DNA from: Patescibacteria group bacterium
Lineage (GTDB): Bacteria; Patescibacteriota; Patescibacteriia; JAZDEU01
Assembly: GCA_042568285.1 (NCBI GenBank)
Contig: JBHPIX010000001.1
Coordinates: forward strand, 539-64,538
DNA: 64,000 nt
Direction of reading: 5' to 3'
Shown here: positions 1,841-64,000 of the stretch, piece by piece
How positions within the stretch are numbered: position 1 is the first letter of the stretch
Layout of the letters: each line of letters begins with the position of its first letter
Notes under the pieces: generated by a model
What the model was told of the DNA's origin: nothing
Databases searched by the model: none
The model's input: only the letters and a program-made list of their open reading frames with translations
Made by a program: the position numbers and the translations under genes

Positions 1841-2416
1841 ATGTTTATGGAAAAAAATCAAGATATAAAAAATTTAAACAAAAATATAAAGGAATTAAAT
1901 AAAAGCTTTGGGAAAGCTAATTCATTTAAGCTTTCTTTTTTTAGGGGGCTGATGGTTGGCGTTGGAACAGCGATTGGCGCAACTATTATAGCCGCTATGG
2001 TAGTGACCATTCTGCTCAAAACAATAAAGACAGCTAAAAATATTCCGTTTTTTGGTGAACTTATAGAAACTACGAAAATAGAAAAATTTATTCCGCAGGA
2101 AGATGAAACTGGCGAAATAGAAATCAATGAAGATGAGCAGAATTTGTCTGTTAAAAAAATAGAACAGGAACAGATGTTTGAATCAGCGCGCGCGTATATT
2201 AAAAAATACAGCGCGGAAGGTATGGAAGTAGAACTGTCAATAATTAATCAAGTTGATAAATGGGCTATATTGCAAGTAGTTCCCGTTACCATAGAAACAG
2301 ATAATGCTTCTGTTATTATGGAAAAAGTTGAAGGCAAATGGATCACTCGGGAATTTGGCACTTTTTTATCTCCAGAGTGGATGGATAAAGCCCCTGAATT
2401 ATTTATTGAAGATTAG
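1841..2416 (+). CDS. hypothetical membrane-anchored protein
   Basis: one predicted TM helix (LMVGVGTAIGATIIAAMVVTILL), acidic C-terminal domain. Confidence 0.45.
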   Translation: MFMEKNQDIKNLNKNIKELNKSFGKANSFKLSFFRGLMVGVGTAIGATIIAAMVVTILLKTIKTAKNIPFFGELIETTKIEKFIPQEDETGEIEINEDEQNLSVKKIEQEQMFESARAYIKKYSAEGMEVELSIINQVDKWAILQVVPVTIETDNASVIMEKVEGKWITREFGTFLSPEWMDKAPELFIED

Positions 2417-2472
2417 TAGAGAACAAAAAATTTTGTTCTTCGAAAATTTTGTTCTCCGAATCCATTTAGTAT

Positions 2473-2504
2473 CAAAAAACCGCCCCTTGCGAGGCGGTCT
2501 TTTT
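2473..2504. terminator. bidirectional rho-independent terminator (aaaaaaccgcc-ccttgcga-ggcggtcttttt)
   Basis: 6-bp GC stem flanked by A-run and T-run between convergent genes. Confidence 0.6.
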
Positions 2505-2540
2505 ATGACAAATAGTTTTGTCATTGAATTTGTTTTGCTA

Positions 2541-2807
2541 TTAGAAGTTGTTTCTAGGTCTCATTGGACGAGCTTCGTTTACTGTTAATGTTCGTCCGTC
2601 AAGTTCTTTACCATTCCACATTTCTATAGCTGTTTCAGCTTCGTCGTCATTTGTCATTTCTACGAAACCAAAACCTTTTGAGCGTCCTGACATTTTATCC
2701 ATAATTATAACAGATGAGTCAACACTGCCAGCTTGGGCAAATGCGTCTTTTAAGGAATCCTCAGTTGTGTTATAAGAAATGCCACCGACGAATAATTTTT
2801 TAGCCAT
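2541..2807 (-). CDS. RRM-type RNA-binding protein
   Basis: RNP-2 LFVGGISY and RNP-1 KGFGFVEM motifs, 88 aa. Confidence 0.85.
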   Translation of the reverse strand: MAKKLFVGGISYNTTEDSLKDAFAQAGSVDSSVIIMDKMSGRSKGFGFVEMTNDDEAETAIEMWNGKELDGRTLTVNEARPMRPRNNF

Positions 2808-3119
2808 AATACTTTAAGAAAATTGTATAGTCAAAGATTTAAAATTTATATTATAAATATAAAAATTAAATTTTGCTATTTATTATATTGTAAGTCGACC
2901 TATTTTCTTGGATTATCCGCGCGCTATCCAGTTTTAGGACTTCGCGCGGTGGTTCCCGTTTTCTAAGACCAAAAAATTATTTGTCTTAATGCTATATTGC
3001 ATGTGGGGCTTGCCCCAGTGAAAGGGAAGAGTTAAGAATACTTACAATCTTTATTATACATTATTTTTATAAAATGTCAATAGGTTGCGAAAAAAGGGAG
3101 TTTTTGTTAAGATAGTGTT

Positions 3120-3710
3120 ATGGAAGAGATAGAAGTAAAATTTTTAAATATTAACCCAGTTGAGATAGAGAATAAGTTGAAAAAGCTGGGGGCAGATAGG
3201 CAATTTGAGCGACTTTATAGGCGACGCGTTTTTGATTATCCTGATTTGAGATTAGATAAGCAGGGCGCGTGGCTACGGCTTAGGGATGAGGGTGATAGCA
3301 TTAAATTAGCTTTTAAACAAAGGATTGGAATGTCTAATTTTGATGGAAAATTAAATGATATCGGTATGGAGGAAATAGAAATTGAAGTTAGCGATTTTGA
3401 TAAAACAGCTGATATTTTGTTAAAAAGCGGATTAAAGGAAAAATTTTATCAGGAAAATAAGAGAATAAGGTATGTTTTTGATAATATTGAATTTGATATA
3501 GATTTTTGGCCAAAGCTTGATCCGTATTTAGAAATAGAAGCTACAAGCTGGGATGATATTGATCGCGGAATTAAGCTTTTAGGATTAAACCCAGACGATA
3601 AGAAAATTTTTTCAACGAATCGGATTTATAAACTTAAAGGAATAGAAATTTTAGATTATAAAATAACTACTTTTGAACGGATGGTTAAAGGGGATAATAA
3701 AATGTTTTAG
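3120..3710 (+). CDS. CYTH-domain protein (class IV adenylate cyclase / triphosphatase fold)
   Basis: N-terminal EIEVKFL signature and overall 196-aa length typical of CYTH. Confidence 0.55.
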   Translation: MEEIEVKFLNINPVEIENKLKKLGADRQFERLYRRRVFDYPDLRLDKQGAWLRLRDEGDSIKLAFKQRIGMSNFDGKLNDIGMEEIEIEVSDFDKTADILLKSGLKEKFYQENKRIRYVFDNIEFDIDFWPKLDPYLEIEATSWDDIDRGIKLLGLNPDDKKIFSTNRIYKLKGIEILDYKITTFERMVKGDNKMF

Positions 3711-3767
3711 AATAATAACTCATACACGGATGTCTTATTTGTAAGATAGGATATTTGTATGTAAGGA

Positions 3768-3908
3768 AAAGAATCCCCCTGTCCCTCCCGGTCATCCGAC
3801 AGGACTTCGCCTTTATAAAAGGGGGAACTAGAGGAATTAGTTCGATTAGTTCCTCCCTCTGTGCCTGCCCGCCGAATTGGAGGGAGGGGGGACAGGGGGA
3901 TTCTTTAA
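3768..3908. repeat. 140-bp palindromic element with 20-bp perfect terminal inverted repeats (gaatccccctgtccctccc ... gggaggggggacagggggattc)
   Basis: read directly; internal sub-palindromes; GC-rich island in AT-rich DNA. Confidence 0.6.
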
Positions 3909-3944
3909 ATAAGTTCTTTAAACAATAAAAGATGTAAAACCATT

Positions 3945-4008
3945 AACAAAAAGGTCGTTGTCGCCCGCCGAATCGGCGAGGCTACGGCGGACCAAAGGAG
4001 GATTGATA
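3945..4008 (+). promoter_or_regulatory. conserved 5' leader motif (variant) ggtcg-tgtcgcccgccgaatcggcgaggctacggcggaccaaaggagg preceding pyrC start
   Basis: related to the ggtcgccgtcgcaaagctatggctgacaaaaggag leader found at 3 other genes. Confidence 0.35.
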
Positions 4009-5097
4009 ATGAAAGAGAATCAAGAACTAACAGAAATAATTGTCCCAAAATTTTTTGACGCGCACGCTCATCTGCGGGAAAAAGACATTCAGAATAATAT
4101 ATTATGGATTGTTTTAAAAGAAATGGTTAAATATTGTTTTGGCGCTGTGGTAATGCCAAATCTTTCTAGGCCAGTTTGTAATATAGAAGATGTTGGGTTT
4201 TATTCTAACAATATTAAGGAAAATTTAAAATGGATAAACAGTAGATATTCATCGTCTGAATTCCAAACTGTAATGACAATACAGCTTACTGACATTGAAA
4301 AAAAATATTTATGCAAAGCGACAACTCCAGAAATAATTTTAAAAGCGCATCAAGGCGGAGTAAAAGCGGGTAAAGCGTATCCTGTCGGCGCTACAACAAA
4401 TTCTGCAAGAGGCATAAAGAATTTTCGTTCGCAGGCGATGAAGATGGTTTGGAAAACTATGGAAGATCTTGGCATGCGAGCGCTTCTACATCCTGAACAG
4501 CCCGGCGTTTTTTGTATGGATAAAGAGAAAAAGTTTTTTGATACAGTAAGGTGGTTAGTTGATAAGTATCCAAAACTTAAAATAGTGTTGGAGCATATAA
4601 CAAGCGCTGAAGCAGTTAATTTTGTTAAGCAATTGCCTGATACAGTAAAAGCTACTATTACGGCTCATCATTTAATTTTAACATTAGATGATATTATCGG
4701 TGGCAAATTGCATCCGCATAATTTCTGCCATCCTATACCAAAACGACCTAAAGATAGGGATGCGTTAATTCAAGCCGCTATTAGCGGCAATCCTAAATTT
4801 TTCTTTGGTAGCGATAGAGCTCCGCATTTAAAAAAAAATAAAGAATGCGCCACTGGTTCTGCTGGCGTTTATTCTGGACCTGTTGTTCCTTCAATATTAG
4901 CTAAAATTTTTGCTGATAATTACGCAATTGATAAGTTAAAAGATTTTACTTCTACTTTCGCGTCTGATTTTTATGATATTACTCCTTCTACTAAAACTAT
5001 AAAGATAGTTAAAGAACCGTGGCGGGTTCCTAAAATGTATGACGAAATTGTTCCTTTTCTCGCAGACCAGACTCTTGATTGGCGGCTTGCGGATTAA
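4009..5097 (+). CDS. pyrC: dihydroorotase (type II, PyrC-like)
   Basis: FDAHAHLR metal-binding motif; GSDRAPHLKKNKECATGSAGVYSGP matches E. coli PyrC [25 protein letters not shown]; start taken at MKENQ (track ORF begins 3958 inside the leader). Confidence 0.75.
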   Translation: MKENQELTEIIVPKFFDAHAHLREKDIQNNILWIVLKEMVKYCFGAVVMPNLSRPVCNIEDVGFYSNNIKENLKWINSRYSSSEFQTVMTIQLTDIEKKYLCKATTPEIILKAHQGGVKAGKAYPVGATTNSARGIKNFRSQAMKMVWKTMEDLGMRALLHPEQPGVFCMDKEKKFFDTVRWLVDKYPKLKIVLEHITSAEAVNFVKQLPDTVKATITAHHLILTLDDIIGGKLHPHNFCHPIPKRPKDRDALIQAAISGNPKFFFGSDRAPHLKKNKECATGSAGVYSGPVVPSILAKIFADNYAIDKLKDFTSTFASDFYDITPSTKTIKIVKEPWRVPKMYDEIVPFLADQTLDWRLAD

Positions 5098-5112
5098 GTA
5101 TTTATAAAAAAA

Positions 5113-5148
5113 ATAGGCGATGAATAAATAAATATTCATCGCCTTTTA
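5113..5148. terminator. bidirectional terminator (ggcgatgaataaataaatattcatcgcc + T/A runs)
   Basis: 10-bp stem between convergent pyrC and phosphoesterase genes. Confidence 0.55.
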
Positions 5149-5173
5149 AAATAGCTGGGGAGCTTATAGATTA

Positions 5174-6310
5174 TTAAAGATCGGGAAGTGGATCATAAGG
5201 TATCCTGCCTAATGTTATTTCATATTTTGGCATTTCAATGATAGCGTAATTTCTGCCTTGAATGATATCTCCTGGATTAAGGAATATGACATTTATATCC
5301 TCCTCATAAAAAGCATCGTGAGTAAAACCTGATAAAATAAATTTCACCTGTGAATGTTCTCTTTGGATTTGGCGCGCTAAACAATTCATATCAAACTCGG
5401 ATTTAGATATGAGATCAGATCCTAAATCCCAGTGAACAAAAAATCCATAGCCTTTAATAGGAGTTATTTTGTCTTCTATTTTATGCCAATTTTTAAATGT
5501 TTGTGTTTGTATTTGCCTTTGTATCAAGCTATAGTGTACTTGGAATTTATCTAATTCAGAAATACCTATGTCATCTAAGTTAATATTGCCACAGTGTATA
5601 ATATCTGTGACATTTCTTTCTAAAAAAAGATTTCTTAGTTTTTCCCAAAAAGTAGGATCTTTTTTAGATATGTCCGCGCTATCTGAAATTATAGCTACTT
5701 TTAATTCTGGCGCTATACTCTGGCACATAGGTATTCTGCTATAAATTATTTCCTCTTTTTCAGTATCAATTATGGCATAACCGCAACCGCCTGCTATGCC
5801 CATAGGATTTTCTATAGCGCCGGGATTAATAAATGTAATCAATCTGTATTTAAGACAAATTTGATGGTGAGTGTGTCCTGAAAACATATATCGCACATTA
5901 TCATACTCTTTTCTTATCTCATCGAGCGTTTCCTTTAGTTTTGCTTCAGATCCCCTAAGTAATTCAAAAGACCTTTTATGACCTACATATACTCTAGTTT
6001 TTTCTTTTAATTTGCGCAAATCAACAATCCTCTCATTAGGGTGAGTGAATGTCCAATTATTAGGAGGAGAACAAAATGGTATATTATTCCTGTCTTTTGT
6101 CTTTTTTTCAGACTGGCAAAGTTGTGTCTGCTCATCTGTCAACGCGCAGAATACAGGTAAGTTGCCAAATAATTTTTTATTTACATGATTTTTTGATATA
6201 TCTCCGCAGTGTATAATTATTTCTACTCCATATCTTTTAAATATTTCTATTATATGACGAGTAGCTTTTTGCTTATCTCCATGAGTATCTGAAAGTATTC
6301 CTAGTTTCAT
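5174..6310 (-). CDS. tandem-domain calcineurin-like metallophosphoesterase (two YfcE/MJ0936-type domains)
   Basis: two copies of ILSDTHGD ... IIHCGDI type motifs; start taken at MKLGILSDTHGD. Confidence 0.65.
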   Translation of the reverse strand: MKLGILSDTHGDKQKATRHIIEIFKRYGVEIIIHCGDISKNHVNKKLFGNLPVFCALTDEQTQLCQSEKKTKDRNNIPFCSPPNNWTFTHPNERIVDLRKLKEKTRVYVGHKRSFELLRGSEAKLKETLDEIRKEYDNVRYMFSGHTHHQICLKYRLITFINPGAIENPMGIAGGCGYAIIDTEKEEIIYSRIPMCQSIAPELKVAIISDSADISKKDPTFWEKLRNLFLERNVTDIIHCGNINLDDIGISELDKFQVHYSLIQRQIQTQTFKNWHKIEDKITPIKGYGFFVHWDLGSDLISKSEFDMNCLARQIQREHSQVKFILSGFTHDAFYEEDINVIFLNPGDIIQGRNYAIIEMPKYEITLGRIPYDPLPDL

Positions 6311-18683: not shown

Positions 18684-18746
18684 GTGGGGGGCTACAGCGT
18701 AATAGCTCCCCCCCTTTCGGAGGGGGGGATAAAGGGGGGGTGTGGT
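18684..18746. repeat. GC-rich hairpin element(s), probable bidirectional terminator between groEL and DUF4342 gene
   Basis: ggggggctacagcgtaatagctcccccc and ctcccccc-ctttcgg-aggggggg hairpins. Confidence 0.5.
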
Positions 18747-35114: not shown

Positions 35115-38100
35115 CTATCCGTCTTGAGCCCGTCTTTTCCAAACCAAGACTCCCAGCACGACAGCTAAAATCCCAACCGCTATAGATAAAACCCACTGTA
35201 ATATTTTTTTTATGCCGATAGCGCGATCAGCGTCTTTTTGTAAATTTTCTATTGTTTGCGCCAGTTTTATTTCAGGCACTTCCTCAACTGTTTCTTGCTC
35301 AGAAATTTCATCTACATTTAAAGAAATTTCAATATCCTCTTCGCCTTCCAAATCTACGCCGATAACTTCTGTCTCCCATTCGCCGTCTTCGGGATCTTCA
35401 ACAACCACAATTGCTCCCATGCCGTCCTGCATGGGCTCGCCTGAATATTTTTTTCCAGACGGACTTATTAAAGCAAACTCAATAACTGGTTTGTCTTCAG
35501 CCATCGCTGGCGAGATATTCCAGAGCCTATCAGACTCTCTAAAGTGCTTTTTGTCATTCCGCGCTTGATGTCCGCCTAGGCTCGACTCCGCCTCGGATCG
35601 CCGAGTGCGAGACGGGATAGTCGAGACTGGCGGAATCCAGTTAGTTAATCTGGATTGCAAAATTTCTGGATCCCGCGTCAAGCGCGGGATGACATTCCCA
35701 GAATACTCTGATAGTAACGCGGACCCAAACCTCATAACCCCAGTTAAAATTTGCCTGCCCCCGCTTCTAACCGCCTCCGCTGTTTGGCGCGCAGTTTCTT
35801 CTACTCTCTCACCAGTTTCAATAATGGTTTTAGCGGCTTCTTCCGCTATATTTTCAGCTGTTTCAACAGCTTGCTCTGTTTTTTCCTGAATTGCGTCCCG
35901 CATCGCTTCGCCAGTTTGACTTGTCGCCTGTACTACAAATTTTTTTGTTTTCTTAACTCCTCTAACGAGAGTGGTCTTTGTTGTATTTGCTACTTGCCTA
36001 AAAATATTCACCATTTCATTGGATATTCTATCAGCTTCTCTTGTAAATTCATAAGCTAAATTACCTCCTTTTACAATAGCATTATCAATAGAAGCTCCCA
36101 ACGGTCTCATTGACTGATAAACTGATTCCAGATCAATAATCTCTTGGGTTCCCGGAATACGGATTACTGAATGGCAATCACCGATAGTGGCTTCGCACCA
36201 ATCACTCGCGGTATTATGATAAATTGCGAACATCTTTCCTTCTGAATATATACCGAAAATCGCCTTGCCATAAAGTCCAGCGATATTAATGCCGTCAGTC
36301 GCTAATTTTAATTTGTCATTAATATCTCTGGCGAAATCGCTAACTTTTTCAAAAACATCGCCAAAAATAGTTTCCTTGCCTAATAAACTGGCGCCCCAAT
36401 CTACTGCCGCGCCAGCTAATCCAAGCTGATCCATTAGCTTGCCAAAATTTGTGGTAGTATCAATTAATTGGTTGCCCATATTTTTGCTTTTATCAAAAAT
36501 ATTGTCATTATTGTAAACAAAATTTTTCTCTGCTATTAATGCTTCTCTGATTTGATTAATTTTTGTTTGATATCCATAATAAGGAACATCGCTATTTGGC
36601 ACAGCTCCAACAAATTTATTTTGATGCCATATAGCAACTTGATAATCAACCATTTGGTTAGAAACAGCTTCTTTAAAATTCGTCATAAAAGCTAATTTAT
36701 ATAAATTTTTATATTTATGTTTTACAGTCTTTTCTAATTCATCCATATAGCGCTTCAAACTTCCCTGCGAGTTTTCAAACGCCCTGTCAGCTTCCATTTT
36801 AAAATCCGCGATTTGCGCGGAACTTTCTATTCCCAAACTATTCAATACAGATTCCAAACTATGTCCTTCCAACTGTCCTCCTACTAATTCAGTAGCGGCA
36901 GTTAATTTATCCGCGACACCTCTTAAATTTACATTAAGTTTTCCTGACAAGCTATTTAATCTTTGGTGCGCGACAATCTTCGCTTTAAACAATAAGAACG
37001 TTCTCATCAACTGCCATGTCGCTTCTCCAAGAACATCCGCCATTTCTGTTCCTGCCTCAATAGTCGCAACTCCTAATTTTTCTATGGCAATAGAACTTTT
37101 TAATAAAGCGATTGCTTTTACTTTATTGCCCCCGTCCTTTTCTTCTTCTACGGAAATCATTAAGGTTCTATGCATATCATGCGGGCTAAAATTACCTTCC
37201 AGTCCAGGCACATATTTTTTATCATTTAATGGCATTATACTTCCATAAATATTGCTATACTCATTAATATATTCAATTACATTTTCTTCCATCGCGCATT
37301 TTTTTTCCCAGCAAAAATCAGACTTGCATTGCGAACTTTCAGAACATGCGTCGCCATTATTAAACAATAAACATTCTCTTCTTGTTGTGGCGCAGTCAGG
37401 ACATGAACAATCTTCATTATCCTGGCATTCTCCATCACCGCACCAAGTGTATCCTAGGGGTCTGCATACAGACTCTACGCAATTATTTGATGCGCAGTCT
37501 TGTTGCTCGTCACAACTTTGTCCGTTTTCTTTTTTAACTTCTTCTTCCTCTCGCTCTTCTGCACCTTCTTCCACTTTTAATTCATCTTCTACTCCATTCT
37601 CATCGTTCCCCTCTTGAGAGGGGTCAGGGGTGTGTTCTGTTTCAGCAGAAACACTTACCCTTAATTTTACACCTATAGCTTCAATTGTAGTGTAATGATA
37701 GAATTTAACTGTATTAGATCCAGCTTGAAAAAACTTTGTGGCGTCAATCCATTTATTTAAACCGCTTGCTTCTGTCACATTTTTTCCAAGCGAAGCATCA
37801 TAAACTTGTCCGTTTGACGATGAATATGGAGAAAATTCCCAAACTGTTTTATCATTCACTTTTACATATCCATTTTTTCCCATATATTTTTTAACATAGT
37901 TAGAACTGTTCTTAGCATAATGGGTAATTTCTACTTTGGTAAACCGGCTCGGAAGATTAACTGTCCATATATGAGGCGCGCGCGAAGCTGGAATAACTCC
38001 TCCGTCTTTCATTTCTCCACTTGATCCAAATGACATAGAATTTATTGCTGTAAATTCATCATCCTCGCACTGTCCGCAATCTTTTACGCAATCAACGCAT

Positions 38101-40034
38101 GTTTCTCCGCTATCGCAAAATGTGTCTCCACAATATGTTTCAGAGCTTCTGCATTTACTGTGAACACAATGGTTATTTTTGCATTCTGAATTAGCTCCGC
38201 ATGTTTCTCCAGTATCTTTCAATGAACATGCTCCACAATCAGAAGTACAGCTTGAACAAGACTCTCCTCTATCGCAAAATGTATCGCCGCAATATGTTTC
38301 AGAGCTTCTGCATTTGCCATGAACACAATGCCAATTTTTACATTCCCCGCTATTAACGCAATCAGAACCGTCTGGCTTACTGCATAATCCGCAATCATCA
38401 GAACAATCATCGCATGTTTCACCTGTATCGCAGTTACTGTCTCCGCAGTATGTTGAAGAGCTTCTGCATTTTCCGTGAACACAATAATTGTTCGCGCATT
38501 CTGAATTAGCGTTGCATACAGCTCCATCAATTTTTAATGAACATGACCCGCAGTCGGAAGTACAGCTTGAACAAGATTCGTCGCTATCGCAAAATGTATC
38601 CCCGCAATATGTAGAATTTTCGCGACATATATTATGAACACAATAATAATCCCCGCAATCAATCTGCGAAAGGCATTGCTCTCCTATTCCAGCTCGGCAG
38701 TTTCCGCAGTCCTGCTGGCACACATCGCACTCTTCGCCATTGTCGCAATGACCGTCTCCGCAGTATGGGGATGAAGATCTGCACCTGCTATGCAAACAAT
38801 ATGGACTTTCGCACTCTGAATTGTTTGAGCAAACCTCGCCGTCTGCTTTTAAATTTAATTCGCAATAATAATTAGAAGTATCGCATAAATAACCGCTATC
38901 GCAATGATCATTTATTGAGCAACATGTTTTGCCAGCTTCGCAACATACATAATTTGCGCAATTTTCTGATTTGCAAGTTGAAGATGCATAGCAGACTTCT
39001 CCAATTTCTTTTCTTGTATCCACTTTTTCAACGCAATATTTATTATAATGGCATTCATATCCAGTTGAACAATCATCATCGTCATAACAGCACGTTCCAG
39101 AATCACAACATTTTCCATTGTTGCAGTATCCACTAGCGCATTCTTCTGAAGATGCGCAGACAGAACCATTTACTTTTAAGTATGTATACTCGCATAAATA
39201 ATTTGAATTGCATAAACCATTATTGCCACAATCATTATCAGTTTCGCAACACCATCCAACGCCTCCGCAGCATATTTTTTTTGAATAATCGCTTCCAAGC
39301 ACATAATCACAAATACTTGATTCGCATTCGCTATATTGAGAGCAAGCTTCGCCATTTGCCTTTTTAACTTTATCTTCGCAATAATAATTATCATTGCAAA
39401 TAGTATTCAATCCAAAAAGATCTCCGCAGTCGTTGCTTGTCTTGCAACATTCTTTGCCAGCTTCGCAACAAGTTCTATGCTGGCAATTATCTGATACGCA
39501 GTCTGTGTTAGAGCTACAACTCCCGCCATTCGCGGTCGTAGCGTCTGATTCGCAATAGCATCCGCCGGATTCGCCATATAGGGTGCAAGTAGCCGCGTAT
39601 GGACAATGGTCATTATTGAAACAGCATACGCTTCCCGTTTTACAGCATATATTATTACTGCAATTTCCTGATTCACATTCTGCGTCTTCGCCTGAATCGC
39701 ATGTCATAGAATTTATTACACTGCCGGCGCAATCTTCTGGACAAATGGTATATCCTTCATCGCAATAGCCGTCTCCGCAAAAATAATAATGATCTCTGCA
39801 AATATTATGGATGCAATAATCCGCATCGCAGTCCCATGATGTTGTACAGCTTTCACCCAGAGCGTTCGTCGCAAAAGAAACATTCGCGAACAGCGACATT
39901 GCGAATATTGCAAAAACAAAAACAGCGATAAACTTTAATGAACTAAAAGTACAATCGCTGTTTGCAGATAACTGTTTTACGAAATGCCACAATTTTTCGT
40001 AAAATGTTTGTGGCGTTTTGATAGAGTGTTTCAT
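35115..40034 (-). CDS. giant (1639 aa) Cys-rich modular surface protein with N-terminal signal/TM and C-terminal TM anchor
   Basis: dozens of ~45-aa Cys-rich repeats (GxxCxxxxxCxSxxC...CC), a second repeat class (YCGDxxCDxGExCxxCxxDCGxC), ~700-aa helical region, C-terminal hydrophobic helix. Confidence 0.6.
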   Translation of the reverse strand: MKHSIKTPQTFYEKLWHFVKQLSANSDCTFSSLKFIAVFVFAIFAMSLFANVSFATNALGESCTTSWDCDADYCIHNICRDHYYFCGDGYCDEGYTICPEDCAGSVINSMTCDSGEDAECESGNCSNNICCKTGSVCCFNNDHCPYAATCTLYGESGGCYCESDATTANGGSCSSNTDCVSDNCQHRTCCEAGKECCKTSNDCGDLFGLNTICNDNYYCEDKVKKANGEACSQYSECESSICDYVLGSDYSKKICCGGVGWCCETDNDCGNNGLCNSNYLCEYTYLKVNGSVCASSEECASGYCNNGKCCDSGTCCYDDDDCSTGYECHYNKYCVEKVDTRKEIGEVCYASSTCKSENCANYVCCEAGKTCCSINDHCDSGYLCDTSNYYCELNLKADGEVCSNNSECESPYCLHSRCRSSSPYCGDGHCDNGEECDVCQQDCGNCRAGIGEQCLSQIDCGDYYCVHNICRENSTYCGDTFCDSDESCSSCTSDCGSCSLKIDGAVCNANSECANNYCVHGKCRSSSTYCGDSNCDTGETCDDCSDDCGLCSKPDGSDCVNSGECKNWHCVHGKCRSSETYCGDTFCDRGESCSSCTSDCGACSLKDTGETCGANSECKNNHCVHSKCRSSETYCGDTFCDSGETCVDCVKDCGQCEDDEFTAINSMSFGSSGEMKDGGVIPASRAPHIWTVNLPSRFTKVEITHYAKNSSNYVKKYMGKNGYVKVNDKTVWEFSPYSSSNGQVYDASLGKNVTEASGLNKWIDATKFFQAGSNTVKFYHYTTIEAIGVKLRVSVSAETEHTPDPSQEGNDENGVEDELKVEEGAEEREEEEVKKENGQSCDEQQDCASNNCVESVCRPLGYTWCGDGECQDNEDCSCPDCATTRRECLLFNNGDACSESSQCKSDFCWEKKCAMEENVIEYINEYSNIYGSIMPLNDKKYVPGLEGNFSPHDMHRTLMISVEEEKDGGNKVKAIALLKSSIAIEKLGVATIEAGTEMADVLGEATWQLMRTFLLFKAKIVAHQRLNSLSGKLNVNLRGVADKLTAATELVGGQLEGHSLESVLNSLGIESSAQIADFKMEADRAFENSQGSLKRYMDELEKTVKHKYKNLYKLAFMTNFKEAVSNQMVDYQVAIWHQNKFVGAVPNSDVPYYGYQTKINQIREALIAEKNFVYNNDNIFDKSKNMGNQLIDTTTNFGKLMDQLGLAGAAVDWGASLLGKETIFGDVFEKVSDFARDINDKLKLATDGINIAGLYGKAIFGIYSEGKMFAIYHNTASDWCEATIGDCHSVIRIPGTQEIIDLESVYQSMRPLGASIDNAIVKGGNLAYEFTREADRISNEMVNIFRQVANTTKTTLVRGVKKTKKFVVQATSQTGEAMRDAIQEKTEQAVETAENIAEEAAKTIIETGERVEETARQTAEAVRSGGRQILTGVMRFGSALLSEYSGNVIPRLTRDPEILQSRLTNWIPPVSTIPSRTRRSEAESSLGGHQARNDKKHFRESDRLWNISPAMAEDKPVIEFALISPSGKKYSGEPMQDGMGAIVVVEDPEDGEWETEVIGVDLEGEEDIEISLNVDEISEQETVEEVPEIKLAQTIENLQKDADRAIGIKKILQWVLSIAVGILAVVLGVLVWKRRAQDG
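35552..35694. repeat. R-family composite repeat inserted in-frame inside the giant protein CDS
   Basis: translated as VIPRLTRDPE...NWIPPVSTIPSRTRRSEAESSLGGHQ, the same peptide as in the MiaB-like gene. Confidence 0.8.
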
Positions 40035-53436: not shown

Positions 53437-54237
53437 ATTGCGGGACTGCAAAAAATTAGTTTGCTGGATTATCCAGATAAAATATCTTCGGTTGTTTTTA
53501 CGCAAGGATGTAATTTTATATGTCCGTTTTGCCATAATCCAGAACTTACTGGAATGAGGGGGAGTTCATTGAATGCATCGCATAACCCCCCCTTAATCCC
53601 CCCCTTACTAAGGGGGGGAGCGGAGAAGTTAATCTCCCCATTGGTAAGTGGGGAAGCTGATCATTTATATATAAATGAAAAAGATTTTTTCAAGCATTTA
53701 GATGAGAGAAAAGGTTTTATAGATGGAGTATGTATAACTGGAGGTGAGCCTTTGATGCAAAAAGATATTGCTGATTTTATAAAAAAAGTTAAAGAAAGGG
53801 GATTGTTAGTTAAGTTGGACACTAATGGATCTTATCCAGATAAGTTGCGAAATTTAATAAAACAAAAAATATTGGATTATATAGCAATGGACATAAAAAA
53901 TACATTTTCTAATAAATATAGCGAAGCATCTGGCGTTAATGTTGATTTAAATCAAATTAAAAAAAGTATAAAATTAATAATGGATAGTGGTTTAGGTTAT
54001 GAATTTAGGACAACAGTAGTTAAAGAATTGCATAAAAAAGAAAATATTTTGGAAATAGCTGAATATATAAATGGCGCGCGAAAATATGTCTTGCAAAAAT
54101 TTGAAATTAGAGATAAAATAATGGATAGGAGCTTTATTAATTATTCAAGTATAACAACAGAGGAGGCATTAGAGTTAAAAAAGGAATGTAGTCAATTTGT
54201 TGAAAAAGTTGAACTTAGGGGATGGGGGGAGTCTTAA
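53437..54237 (+). CDS. nrdG: radical-SAM activating enzyme (anaerobic RNR activase NrdG-like)
   Basis: LLDYPDKISSVVFTQGCNFICPFCHNPE radical-SAM CxxxCxxC; likely start MQIAGLQK (track ORF 53380 starts inside a repeat). Confidence 0.6.
   Translation: MAGLQKISLLDYPDKISSVVFTQGCNFICPFCHNPELTGMRGSSLNASHNPPLIPPLLRGGAEKLISPLVSGEADHLYINEKDFFKHLDERKGFIDGVCITGGEPLMQKDIADFIKKVKERGLLVKLDTNGSYPDKLRNLIKQKILDYIAMDIKNTFSNKYSEASGVNVDLNQIKKSIKLIMDSGLGYEFRTTVVKELHKKENILEIAEYINGARKYVLQKFEIRDKIMDRSFINYSSITTEEALELKKECSQFVEKVELRGWGES
53571..53660. repeat. GC-rich hairpin element embedded in-frame in the activase CDS
   Basis: cataacccccccttaatccccccc-ttactaa-gggggggag translated as HNPPLIPPLLRGGAEK. Confidence 0.6.
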
Positions 54238-58707: not shown

Positions 58708-58871
58708 GGGACTGTTGCCGAATGCTCCTTTAGGCATAAATTTTTAGATTTTGAGGCACAATTTTTTAAACAATTTTTGAGGTTTAGCCTAAGCTAAGCC
58801 AAAAAAAATTTTGGAAAATTTGACCAAAATATGAAAATTTAGGACAAAGAGGAGCATTCGGCAACAGTCCC
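58708..58871. repeat. MITE-like element B (TIR gggactgttgccgaatgctcc ... ggagcattcggcaacagtccc, ~164 bp)
   Basis: copy 1 of 4. Confidence 0.75.
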
Positions 58872-62522: not shown

Positions 62523-62686
62523 GGGGACTGTTGCCGAATGCTCCTTTAGGCATAAATTTTCAAATTTTGAGGCAAAATTTTTTTAACAATTTTTGCGGTT
62601 TAGCTTTAGCTAAGCTAAGAAAATTTTTAGAAAATTTGACCAAAATATGAGAATTTAGGACAAAGAGGTATTCGGCAACAGTCCCC
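62523..62686. repeat. MITE-B copy 3
   Basis: near-identical to 58708-58871. Confidence 0.75.
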
Positions 62687-62703: not shown

Positions 62704-63528
62704 ATGAACTATAAAAAAGATATCTTAAAAGATACTTATAAAAATCCTTTTTACCCTAAAAAGGATATTAGTGTTAATAAAGGAATAATATTAACATTAA
62801 TTTTTAGTATTATTATGGGTTATTGGGTATATTTATTATTTTATTCGCCGTATTTTAAGATTAAAAGAATCTATATTAATGATATAGAATATATTGATAA
62901 TAAAAAAGTTTTAGAAATCGTTAGATCTCAAATATCTGAGAGAAGATTTTTTATATTTCATCAAAATAATTCGCTATTGCTAGATGAGCTAATGTTGCAA
63001 ACAAAAATAAAAAAAACTTTTTTGGTAGAGGATATTCAGATTAGAATTCAAAGTTTTAATGATATTTATATACAAATAATAGGGAAGCCATCAGGAGTTA
63101 CATGGATTGCAGGAGATAAATATTATTATTTGGATATGGATGGGAATGTAAAAAGAGAAGTTTCGCCGATGGAAGCAAAAAGGGAGTATCTCATTATTTA
63201 TGGTTTTAATAATGATAGAGTAGATGAAAATTTTGATAATCAAAAGTTTATTAGTAAAGAATATATAAATAGCGCGATAAAAATTAAAGAAGATATTAAG
63301 AAGAATACTCAGTTTACGATTATATCATTTAAATATATAAATAATGATTATATTCAAGAATTTTATGCAAAAACAGACAAAGGATATGAAATATTTTTTG
63401 ATTTAAGGATAGATCTAACAGAGCAATTAGGTAATTTATATACTTTATTAAACCAAACATTTAAAAATAACGTTTATCCTGATCAGTATATAGATTTAAG
63501 ATTTGGAGAAAGAGTTTATTATAAGTAA
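62704..63528 (+). CDS. FtsQ/DivIB-like cell division protein (POTRA)
   Basis: single N-terminal TM followed by FKIKRIYINDIEYIDNKKVLEIV POTRA-like start. Confidence 0.4.
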   Translation: MNYKKDILKDTYKNPFYPKKDISVNKGIILTLIFSIIMGYWVYLLFYSPYFKIKRIYINDIEYIDNKKVLEIVRSQISERRFFIFHQNNSLLLDELMLQTKIKKTFLVEDIQIRIQSFNDIYIQIIGKPSGVTWIAGDKYYYLDMDGNVKREVSPMEAKREYLIIYGFNNDRVDENFDNQKFISKEYINSAIKIKEDIKKNTQFTIISFKYINNDYIQEFYAKTDKGYEIFFDLRIDLTEQLGNLYTLLNQTFKNNVYPDQYIDLRFGERVYYK

Positions 63529-63532
63529 TTTT

Positions 63533-63706
63533 TTATTCGGTCATATCATTAGCATTAATTTTATATTCCTTTCTATCATAAAATTCCGCTTGTTTTCCTT
63601 TATTCCATGAATTAACAGGACGTAAATATCCTGACACTCTGGAATAAACTTCGCATTTTTGTCTTTTTTGATTTTGTAAAATTGTAGGATTTGATTGATT
63701 TGACAT
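63533..63706 (-). CDS. 57-aa ORF encoding only the glycyl-radical C-terminal tail of NrdD
   Basis: YSRVSGYLRPVNSWNKGKQAEFYDRK matches NrdD RVCGYLGSP...FNAGKQEEV glycyl radical region. Confidence 0.5.
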   Translation of the reverse strand: MSNQSNPTILQNQKRQKCEVYSRVSGYLRPVNSWNKGKQAEFYDRKEYKINANDMTE

Positions 63707-63746
63707 ATAATTTAATTATAGCATATCCTAAAATTTTTAGCCATTA

Positions 63747-63909
63747 TGGGGCTGTCGCCTAATACCTCTTTGTCCTAAATTCCCATATTTTGGTCAAATT
63801 TTCTAAAATTTTTTTGGCTTAGCTAAGGCTAAACCGCAAAAATTGTTTAAAAAATTATACCTCAAAATCTGAAAATTTATGCCTAAAGGAGCATTAGGCG
63901 ATAGCCCCA
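63747..63909. repeat. MITE-B copy 4 (inverted, diverged) inserted in the 3' end of nrdD
   Basis: ggggctgtcgcctaatacctc ... gagcattaggcgatagcccc. Confidence 0.7.
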
Positions 63910-64000
63910 TTGTTGTTAGTGACGTTTTGTTCCTCATCGCATATAGGGCAATAGAAATGTTCACCTGCGATATATCCATGTTTGGGACAAATGCTGAAAG
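63894..64000 (-). CDS. nrdD: anaerobic ribonucleoside-triphosphate reductase NrdD, 3' part (zinc ribbon), 5' end beyond window; terminated by stop inside MITE
   Basis: minus-strand translation ...FSICPKHGYIAGEHFYCPICDEEQNVTNNNGAIA* shows NrdD C-terminal CPxxG...CPxC zinc ribbon. Confidence 0.5.
   Translation of the reverse strand, partial: FSICPKHGYIAGEHFYCPICDEEQNVTNNNGAIA

Follow-up and report, generated by a model that had tools for sequence, protein, structure and literature searches.

A probable two-gene class III ribonucleotide reductase in a Patescibacteria group bacterium, with the radical glycine on a small separate reading frame

Introduction

Glycyl-radical enzymes are taught as single chains that carry the radical on their C-terminal domain. 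At one end of the 64,000-nucleotide (nt) stretch of Patescibacteria group bacterium DNA analysed here, called the window in the following (contig JBHPIX010000001.1), the gene of the class III ribonucleotide reductase (RNR), nrdD, runs on the minus strand into a miniature inverted-repeat transposable element (MITE) and stops there, and the glycyl-radical motif lies beyond the element on an open reading frame (ORF) of 57 amino acids (aa). Is this a gene cut by a transposon, or an enzyme that is naturally made from two genes? An earlier, sequence-only reading of the same DNA had allowed for both, either a recent inactivation of nrdD by the insertion or a radical-bearing tail expressed as a separate polypeptide in the manner of GrcA/YfiD. 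We regard the locus, with good confidence, as a naturally two-gene (split) class III RNR consisting of a 685-aa body and a 57-aa radical tail. It is no pseudogene, and the presence of the MITE is incidental.

Body and tail match complementary parts of NrdD

The body gene is cut at the window edge (Table 1), where the minus-strand frame from 63998 reads FSICPKHGYIAGEHFYCPICDEEQNVTNNN, followed by GAIA and a stop codon. Its full product, P0104, an intact ORF of 685 aa, was recovered in a search with the body of a metagenomic relative, L001, and ends in CPICDEEQNVTNNNGAIA, identical to the window reading. P0104 stems from an NCBI contig of 75,985 bp, which is also the contig size of P0001, the exact database match of the tail. 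For the assignment we used the NrdD family models NF006126 and TIGR02487 of NCBIfam and PF13597 of Pfam. On NF006126 (684 positions, cutoff 548) P0104 scores 1031 bits and covers profile positions 3-655; its second score on the family models is 535 bits (cutoff 326). It contains an ATP-cone, a catalytic barrel with the finger-loop motif SMCCRLRL and a C/H/C/C zinc ribbon, CPKHG...CPIC; finger-loop motif and zinc ribbon are conserved in 60 of 60 homologues inspected. The body ends after the zinc ribbon, and the polypeptide with the barrel thus lacks the RV.GY motif of NrdD.

This motif is found on the tail, whose translation is MSNQSNPTILQNQKRQKCEVYSRVSGYLRPVNSWNKGKQAEFYDRKEYKINANDMTE, with the radical glycine at residue 26 (codon 63631-63629). 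In the Pfam scan the tail matches only NRDD, at positions 530-562 of 562 (E 2.7e-10), and in the NCBIfam scan only NrdD models, with positions 648-683 of 684 in NF006126, which bears out the earlier assignment of this ATG-initiated ORF to the glycyl-radical region. A dedicated family for the tail exists in neither NCBIfam nor Pfam. The tail contains solely the segment that makes up the last ~35 residues of an ordinary NrdD, including RVSGYLRP, and no other nrdD-like sequence was found within the window. In an alignment to NrdD of Thermotoga maritima, body residues 159-673 correspond to residues 100-610 of 4coi_A and tail residues 16-48 to residues 611-643, directly after the part covered by the body; the coverage of NF006126 passes from body to tail in the same way. 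These alignments show body and tail to be complementary parts of one NrdD chain.

The domain order of body plus tail is that of the canonical NrdD and NrdG systems of T. maritima (4COI/4U3E), phage T4 (1H78) and E. coli, namely ATP-cone, barrel, finger-loop cysteine, zinc ribbon and the glycyl-radical loop RV.GY, together with an activase of the NrdG2 type. Unlike in the canonical enzymes, the chain is broken in the linker between zinc ribbon and radical loop, and the radical glycine resides on a separate peptide of 45-60 aa.

The radical S-adenosylmethionine activase NrdG was described earlier as intact apart from inserted repeats, and this holds: it scores above the family cutoff (Table 1) and is 40% identical to the NrdG of Halanaerobium, with a 34-aa insert that keeps the frame and directly follows the CxxxCxxC cluster motif. 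The insert (53585-53650) is encoded by a palindrome rich in C7/G7, with a partial match at 18721-18741. A comparable GC-rich insert occurs at the same place in the NrdG of locus L008.

The split is older than the MITE

The last four codons of the body and its stop (GAIA, TAA at 63896-63894) come from the MITE, a copy of an element that we call MITE-B, and the tail ATG lies 41 nt past the other end of the element, in a frame that differs from the body frame. Stops in all three frames occur between the two ORFs. The sequence-only reading had correctly placed the end of the body inside the element and the tail beyond it, but it counted three codons and about 35 nt. When the MITE and one target duplication are deleted in silico, the sequence becomes ...GAA CAA AAC GTC ACT AAC AAC AAT GGC TAA, followed by 30 nt and the tail ATG. 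MITE-B inserted at the final sense codon of a body ORF whose stop was already in place. Its transposition with a 5-bp duplication turned the C-terminus ...NNNG into ...NNNGAIA and extended the spacer from 30 to 187 nt.

The native stop and the beginning of the spacer align with the sequence GTA-TAA-TTAATTTAGGATG of L001, which is syntenic with the window (gatC, a TPR gene and a ydjM-like gene in the same order) and has a tail protein 87% identical to that of the window. Its body ends CPICDEENVV-TAA, and its tail begins at the homologous ATG. The 201-nt spacer between them holds a different, GC-rich palindrome and no MITE-B, and three separate JGI metagenomes show the arrangement. L004, a third relative, has its split at the same place as well; its spacer holds a further, different palindrome and again no MITE-B. 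The comparison with relatives, named earlier as a check, showed genes that are already split. The L004 body is frameshifted at a run of nine A's (4630-4650), ~45 codons before the end, and the downstream frame restores ...CPICDEEMGYNESKKQENNKT and the stop; this is probably an assembly error.

Since excision restores a native stop and spacer, and L001 is split without MITE-B, the MITE is not the cause of the split. It is a secondary passenger in a split that is ancestral and older than the element. Recent pseudogenisation, in which the MITE would have cut a continuous nrdD and left two decaying fragments, draws on the fact that MITEs can disrupt genes, on the termination of the body ORF inside the element and on the different frame of the tail. 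These features are outweighed by the stop and the 30-nt spacer that the sequence already had before the insertion, by the spacer stops in all three frames and by the two relatives split at the same place. Moreover, body and tail are both intact, with a ratio of non-synonymous to synonymous substitution rates (dN/dS) of 0.07 that indicates purifying selection, the flanking genes have no lesions, and the MITE copies are 8-10% diverged, so that none looks brand new. The recent inactivation proposed earlier, already contradicted by L001 and by dozens of distant genomes that are split without MITE-B (see below), is therefore hardly credible. No full-length nrdD beside the locus, which the earlier reading had named as a refuting case, was found within the window.

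Two technical causes were also considered. A sequencing frameshift in the window is ruled out by the stops in all three frames of the spacer and by the same architecture in three independent JGI metagenomes. An alternative genetic code is ruled out as well, as the stop is TAA and the window contains many long ORFs under table 11.

MITE-B is a bona fide MITE, with terminal inverted repeats (TIRs) of 16 nt, a target duplication, several copies and no coding sequence. The target duplication that the earlier reading had asked for was found, with four of five bases matching (ACAAT/ATAAT). The window holds three full copies of 161-164 nt, 90-92% identical, and two solo-TIR mini-hairpins; the sister copies occupy short intergenic spacers of apparently intact gene arrays. 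The copy in nrdD folds as a single long hairpin with a dG of -72.4 kcal/mol (z = -9.3; none of 200 shuffles was as good). Compared with its sisters it has three changes in each terminal repeat, which are paired and compensatory and preserve the stem, implying that the stem is under selection or that this copy descends from another master copy. Like the bacterial MITEs Correia/NEMIS, RPE, RUP and ERIC, MITE-B is short, non-coding, intergenic and multicopy, forms a long hairpin with terminal repeats and has an AT-rich 5-bp target duplication; it differs from them in that it was matched to no named family and gave no Rfam hit. A partner transposase was not identified, no search aimed at one having been made.

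Split nrdD loci in other genomes

A scan of the tail alignment against one genome per GTDB species yielded 80 loci that were kept. The glycyl-radical segment is a stand-alone ORF, with 46-140 codons between stops, in 48 of them, and the separate tail genes of these split loci encode 45-60 aa; tail homologues in the database have 45-88 aa (21 of 21). In nearly all split loci the tail lies just 3' of a body of ~690 aa, or ~1000 aa with an intein. The split bodies end with ...TPTFSICPKHGY.xGEH..CPKCDEEIGY plus 8-25 variable residues, and body and tail are separated by spacers of -29 to 811 nt, with the two ORFs in any frame relative to each other. According to the record titles the split loci belong to many Patescibacteria lineages, Woesearchaeota, Thermoplasmatota, Omnitrophota and Halanaerobiales, several of these labels being doubtful.

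The converse search, started from the body, gave a similar picture. Among the 60 closest homologues of the L001 body, 42 stop after the zinc ribbon and 18 are fused to a tail. Three tail-less bodies were picked at random, and all three have a tail ORF of 47-49 aa between body and nrdG, one of which had been missed by the gene caller. In L084 the tail ORF between body and nrdG (5613-5756, MSPVQTQRQECIVYSRVVGWFTPVQNWNKGKK...) is not called by the gene caller of the source, and its radical glycine is followed by the unusual GWF instead of GYL.

The unsplit relatives L011, L019 and L060 possess a long linker, ...CPICDEEIGLKKSAKAKSLERKRTRCEVYSRV..., exactly at the position of the break. Fused forms are scattered among split ones in a rough tree built by neighbour joining, which suggests repeated fission or fusion of the nrdD body and tail.

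Some further features of the split proteins were observed. Many bodies (P0025-P0049, L005, L026, L044, L066, L070) end in the conserved motif (D/E)R(D/N)I(I/V)xA(I/M)(A/S)-COOH after a variable acidic stretch. The motif, which might help the tail or NrdG to dock, is not present in the window body. Many tails terminate in cysteine pairs such as CGC, CTTC, CPTC, CESC or CSCSSCC (L006, L010, L017, L018, L027, L052, L056, L062, L064; P0014-P0016), resembling the C-termini that serve as redox shuttles in RNRs of classes I and II, and again there is none in the window tail. The L001 body (2791-5799) contains a 317-aa intein-like insert, VGFQ/CMSED...FITGN/TPFT, which is not present in the 88% identical window protein. 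In other NrdD homologues a second intein with LAGLIDADG and intein Pfam domains sits exactly in the finger loop, SMC/CRLRL.

Operon context, translation and selection

The gene order is body, tail, nrdG in 38 of the 48 split loci, and nrdG is adjacent in 41. The order body, nrdG, tail occurs in three loci, from the cultured Halanaerobium saccharolyticum (L067, Table 1), a Halanaerobiales metagenome-assembled genome (MAG) and a Bacillota MAG; here the tail start is preceded by a canonical Shine-Dalgarno sequence, AAAGGAGG, at the canonical distance. A cobalamin riboswitch is located upstream in two of these three loci. The riboswitches 5' of the split Halanaerobiales operons were detected at L065 1974-2153 and L067 1572-1777 with 111 and 104 bits, respectively. 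L084 and L086 have genes for NrdR upstream of the operon.

Generally, a recognisable Shine-Dalgarno sequence precedes 14 of 46 tails, not including those of the window and L001. Within groups the N-termini of the tails are conserved from the initiator methionine on (MSPIETKRQxCEVYSRV..., MKKVxRQxCEVYSRV...), while the DNA upstream is unalignable. These groups coincide with clades of the body tree; therefore, both genes have been inherited together.

The tail is under purifying selection. For the window tail compared with that of L001, dN/dS is 0.069 (15.5 synonymous and 7.5 non-synonymous differences), falling to 0.026 when the conserved 36 codons are taken alone. In ten additional pairs, drawn from different lineages, it was 0.02-0.14, with synonymous sites near saturation, and two more pairs were too saturated for a ratio. 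The radical glycine and 14 other tail positions are invariant in an alignment of 19 sequences.

Rejoining of the two pieces

A single-chain NrdD could still result if the pieces were rejoined by a self-splicing intron, a split intein, ribosomal bypass or frameshifting. Precedents for this exist, as group I introns occur in phage nrdD genes and inteins have hot spots in RNR genes (PMC3653736), and inteins are present elsewhere in the nrdD genes studied here. The spacers, however, share no sequence over their range of lengths; those of the window and L001 hold unrelated palindromes, and in Halanaerobiales a whole nrdG lies inside the spacer. Besides, the start codons of the tails are conserved, in part with a Shine-Dalgarno sequence. 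An Rfam search for introns in 13 split loci (gathering threshold) and in window 63300-64000 (E <= 1) returned only cobalamin riboswitches and noise below threshold. With no Rfam intron match, unrelated spacers and the enclosed nrdG, an intron is unlikely. Signals for recoding were not found, either. A split intein, whose halves would be expected to have ~100 aa and ~35 aa, the latter ending in HN before Cys, Ser or Thr, is excluded by short and variable extensions and the lack of an HN/C junction: the leaders of the tails comprise 3-25 aa without such an intein end, and the extensions of the bodies, also 3-25 aa, are too short for an N-terminal half. The conserved cysteine before EVYSRV occurs in fused forms, too. 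Taken together, rejoining by any of these routes is very improbable, and a naturally two-gene enzyme remains our preferred explanation.

Expression of the tail in the window

Several points count against a functional two-gene RNR in this organism and against its wide occurrence. The set of loci gathered by means of the tail is by its design enriched for the split, and the body-first sample is biased to intein-bearing relatives of L001. nrdG is unlinked both in L001 and in the window, where it lies ~9 kb off on the opposite strand. The window tail has no Shine-Dalgarno sequence, and a consensus promoter scan of the minus strand found no full -35/-10 site before it. Between body and tail there is now a hairpin of -72 kcal/mol with a terminator-like sub-hairpin, and as the MITE hairpin separates the tail from the body, tail expression could be impaired in the source organism. 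Finally, a 35-aa peptide would have to dock in the NrdD barrel and to be activated in trans.

Some of these points would also agree with a polar effect, that is, a split that works in the relatives and a tail that was uncoupled or silenced here by the MITE. The perfect 161-nt hairpin with its terminator-like element follows immediately after the body stop; a Shine-Dalgarno sequence and a scanned promoter before the tail are lacking, and nrdG is unlinked. Against this, L001 tolerates a structured insert of 201 nt in the same spacer in three independent metagenomes, spacers of other relatives measure 100-355 nt, and other MITE-B copies sit in short spacers of gene arrays that appear intact. Both ORFs are free of lesions, in spite of a divergence of ~10% between this MITE copy and its sisters and of one mismatch in its target duplication. 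An extended -10-like motif, TGCTATAAT (63723-63715, 8 nt 5' of the ATG), also lies between the MITE and the tail start, a candidate promoter element identified by eye; it is not conserved in L001, and we do not rely on it. On this evidence silencing of the tail is unlikely.

Comparison with known split and spare-part systems

Small free-standing radical proteins have a precedent. To our knowledge, GrcA, which serves pyruvate formate-lyase (PFL), is the only free-standing radical carrier known. Like the tail, GrcA/YfiD (and Y06I of phage T4) is a small free-standing glycyl-radical protein with RVSGY. Once the cognate activase has acted on it, it provides the radical segment for a large enzyme without a working one (PMC8683613, PMC13450708), and a review of June 2026 knows such spare parts only for formate lyases (PMC13450708). 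The two differ in several respects. GrcA is homologous to the C-terminus of PFL (Pfam Gly_radical, PF01228) and rescues full-length PFL that was cleaved by oxygen, whereas the tail matches NRDD only and pairs with a body that never had the segment; it would be an obligate component and no spare. A full-length enzyme that coexists with the small protein, as in the case of GrcA, was not found at the locus: the adjacent body has no radical domain, and within the window there is no second nrdD. The earlier suggestion of a separate, GrcA-like polypeptide thus gains comparative support as far as the separate polypeptide is concerned; the MITE was not the origin of the split, and GrcA serves as an analogy only.

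One could nevertheless suppose that the tail is a spare part or regulator of the GrcA type and that the body is served by another radical source or has another function. Related lineages do have an extra glycyl-radical protein beside a complete NrdD, as described below, and one orphan copy was found in a Thermodesulfobacteriota genome. Yet the bodies of the split loci are without any glycyl-radical segment, which leaves the tail as the only candidate radical site, the body retains full equivalog-level similarity to NrdD including the finger loop, and the operons encode no alternative radical generator. We therefore consider this role of the tail improbable to a high degree and continue to favour the two-gene enzyme.

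The extra protein of the related lineages has ~92 aa and is encoded between complete nrdD and nrdG genes in loci labelled Paceibacteria and Pacearchaeota (L020 5143-5421; L025, L034, L037, L038, L041, L081). It has its own zinc ribbon, CHDCG...FKCNxCF, and a full glycyl-radical motif. The family has 883 database homologues, the best 120 of which all comprise 74-110 aa, and includes a protein of the cultured Minisyncoccus archaeiphilus. The orphan is a 120-aa version in a Thermodesulfobacteriota MAG (L046 4779-5141) with neither nrdD nor nrdG nearby. By analogy, the ~92-aa protein resembles a spare part of the GrcA type that would serve class III RNR, and this family, rather than the window tail, would be the closer functional analogue of GrcA.

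Other RNRs are known to be split. In the class II enzyme NrdJa/NrdJb of Pseudomonas aeruginosa and Thermus phage YS40, the catalytic chain is encoded in two consecutive ORFs and, like in body and tail, a C-terminal functional module is placed on the second polypeptide (cited in PMC9669993 and PMC3653736). NrdJb is unlike the tail in being a much larger piece of a B12-dependent class II enzyme, with a redox cysteine pair and a zinc finger rather than a radical site. Among phages, nrdD genes are interrupted by introns or fragmented as in phiAS4 (PMC9669993, PMC3653736). The fragmented nrdD of phiAS4 and the NrdA-a/NrdA-b of Aeromonas phage Aeh1 are RNR genes split in the DNA, of which the latter is functional without splicing (PMC3653736). 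These phage cases are single ones, caused by homing endonuclease insertion or of unknown origin, whereas the split between nrdD body and tail is conserved at a fixed position in many cellular lineages. A split cellular class III RNR or an autonomous radical protein of the NrdD type is undescribed in the full-text literature searched, a scope that leaves aside most papers in subscription journals, and an earlier mention of split NrdD elsewhere, e.g. in RNR databases, is possible.

Features and other repeats of the window

The features are listed in Table 1. A second small repeat family (D3 and D5, 14 matches between 6686 and 57143 of the window) consists of a ~35-nt palindrome, TTGTCATCCCGCGCTTGACGCGGGATCC, which is intergenic, often arranged in inverted pairs, and distinct from MITE-B. 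An ORF of 1639 aa on the minus strand (35115-40034) contains tandem repeats of ~157 nt rich in cysteine codons (families D2 and D4) at 38073-38816.

Table 1. Positions of the nrdD body and tail, the activase gene and the MITE-B copies in the window, and of the three-gene operon of Halanaerobium saccharolyticum
Sequence	Feature	Position	Strand	Remarks
Window	nrdD body, 3' end	63894-64000	-	Cut at window edge; zinc ribbon CPKHG...CPIC; full product P0104, 685 aa
Window	Target-site duplication, left	63909-63913	-	ACAAT; pairs with ATAAT, 4/5 bases
Window	MITE-B, copy in nrdD	63748-63908	-	161 nt, non-coding; terminal inverted repeats GGGGCTATCGCCTAAT / ATTAGGCGACAGCCCC; starts GGG at 63908
Window	Target-site duplication, right	63743-63747	-	ATAAT; pairs with ACAAT
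Window	Native body stop before MITE insertion	63737-63739	-	TAA; reconstructed C-terminus ...EEQNVTNNNG
Window	Ancestral spacer between body and tail	63707-63736	-	30 nt; read directly from the sequence
Window	nrdD tail gene	63533-63706	-	57 aa; ATG start; glycyl-radical peptide MSNQSNPTILQNQKRQKCEVYSRVSG/YLRPVNSWNKGKQAEFYDRKEYKINANDMTE
Window	MITE-B, sister copy	62524-62685	+	Spacer between gatC and 274-aa ORF; begins 3 nt past gatC stop
Window	MITE-B, sister copy	58708-58871	+	Spacer between comEC and ydjM-like gene; perfect 5-bp duplication TTTAT/TTTAT
Window	nrdG activase (radical SAM)	53437-54237	+	TIGR02495 (NrdG2), 206 bits, cutoff 131
L067	nrdD body	2111-4171		Halanaerobium saccharolyticum
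L067	NrdG	4172-4870		
L067	nrdD tail	5007-5141		MAKKQKCEVYSRVVGYLSPV...

Proposed mechanism and implications

The sequence comparisons point to a probable class III RNR of two subunits, the smaller of which would be translated separately and bear the radical glycine. The tail would be translated from its own ATG, and NrdG, using S-adenosylmethionine, would convert its Gly26 into a glycyl radical. The peptide is then predicted to dock non-covalently in the barrel of the body and to hand the radical to the finger-loop cysteine, generating a thiyl radical as in the single-chain enzyme. Oxygen cleaves glycyl-radical proteins at the radical glycine; because the cleavage falls on this residue, a small replaceable tail is plausibly advantageous. 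By analogy with GrcA, only a ~6-kDa 'cartridge' might have to be replaced after oxygen damage (PMC8683613).

If this is true, the substrate of NrdG is a free ~50-mer, which would change the picture of activation as well as the view of oxygen-damage repair in ultra-small anaerobes. The annotation of nrdD would also be affected, since gene callers and RNR surveys that filter by length drop the tail or flag the body as truncated. The three-gene operon of the cultured H. saccharolyticum makes the question open to direct tests, and the ~50-aa tail might serve as a minimal substrate for studies of the activase.

On balance, although with less confidence than we have in the two-gene nature of the locus itself, we favour the wider view that this is a widespread two-subunit form of class III RNR, in which a radical peptide of ~5-6 kDa, activated by NrdG, would plug into a tail-less NrdD; this form occurs in Halanaerobiales, many Patescibacteria and MAGs that bear the labels of DPANN or Thermoplasmatota archaea. 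Together with the autonomous ~92-aa proteins of sister lineages, these tails would be the first examples of autonomous glycyl-radical proteins for enzymes other than those of the formate-lyase class, and may act as a replaceable 'radical cartridge' against oxygen damage.

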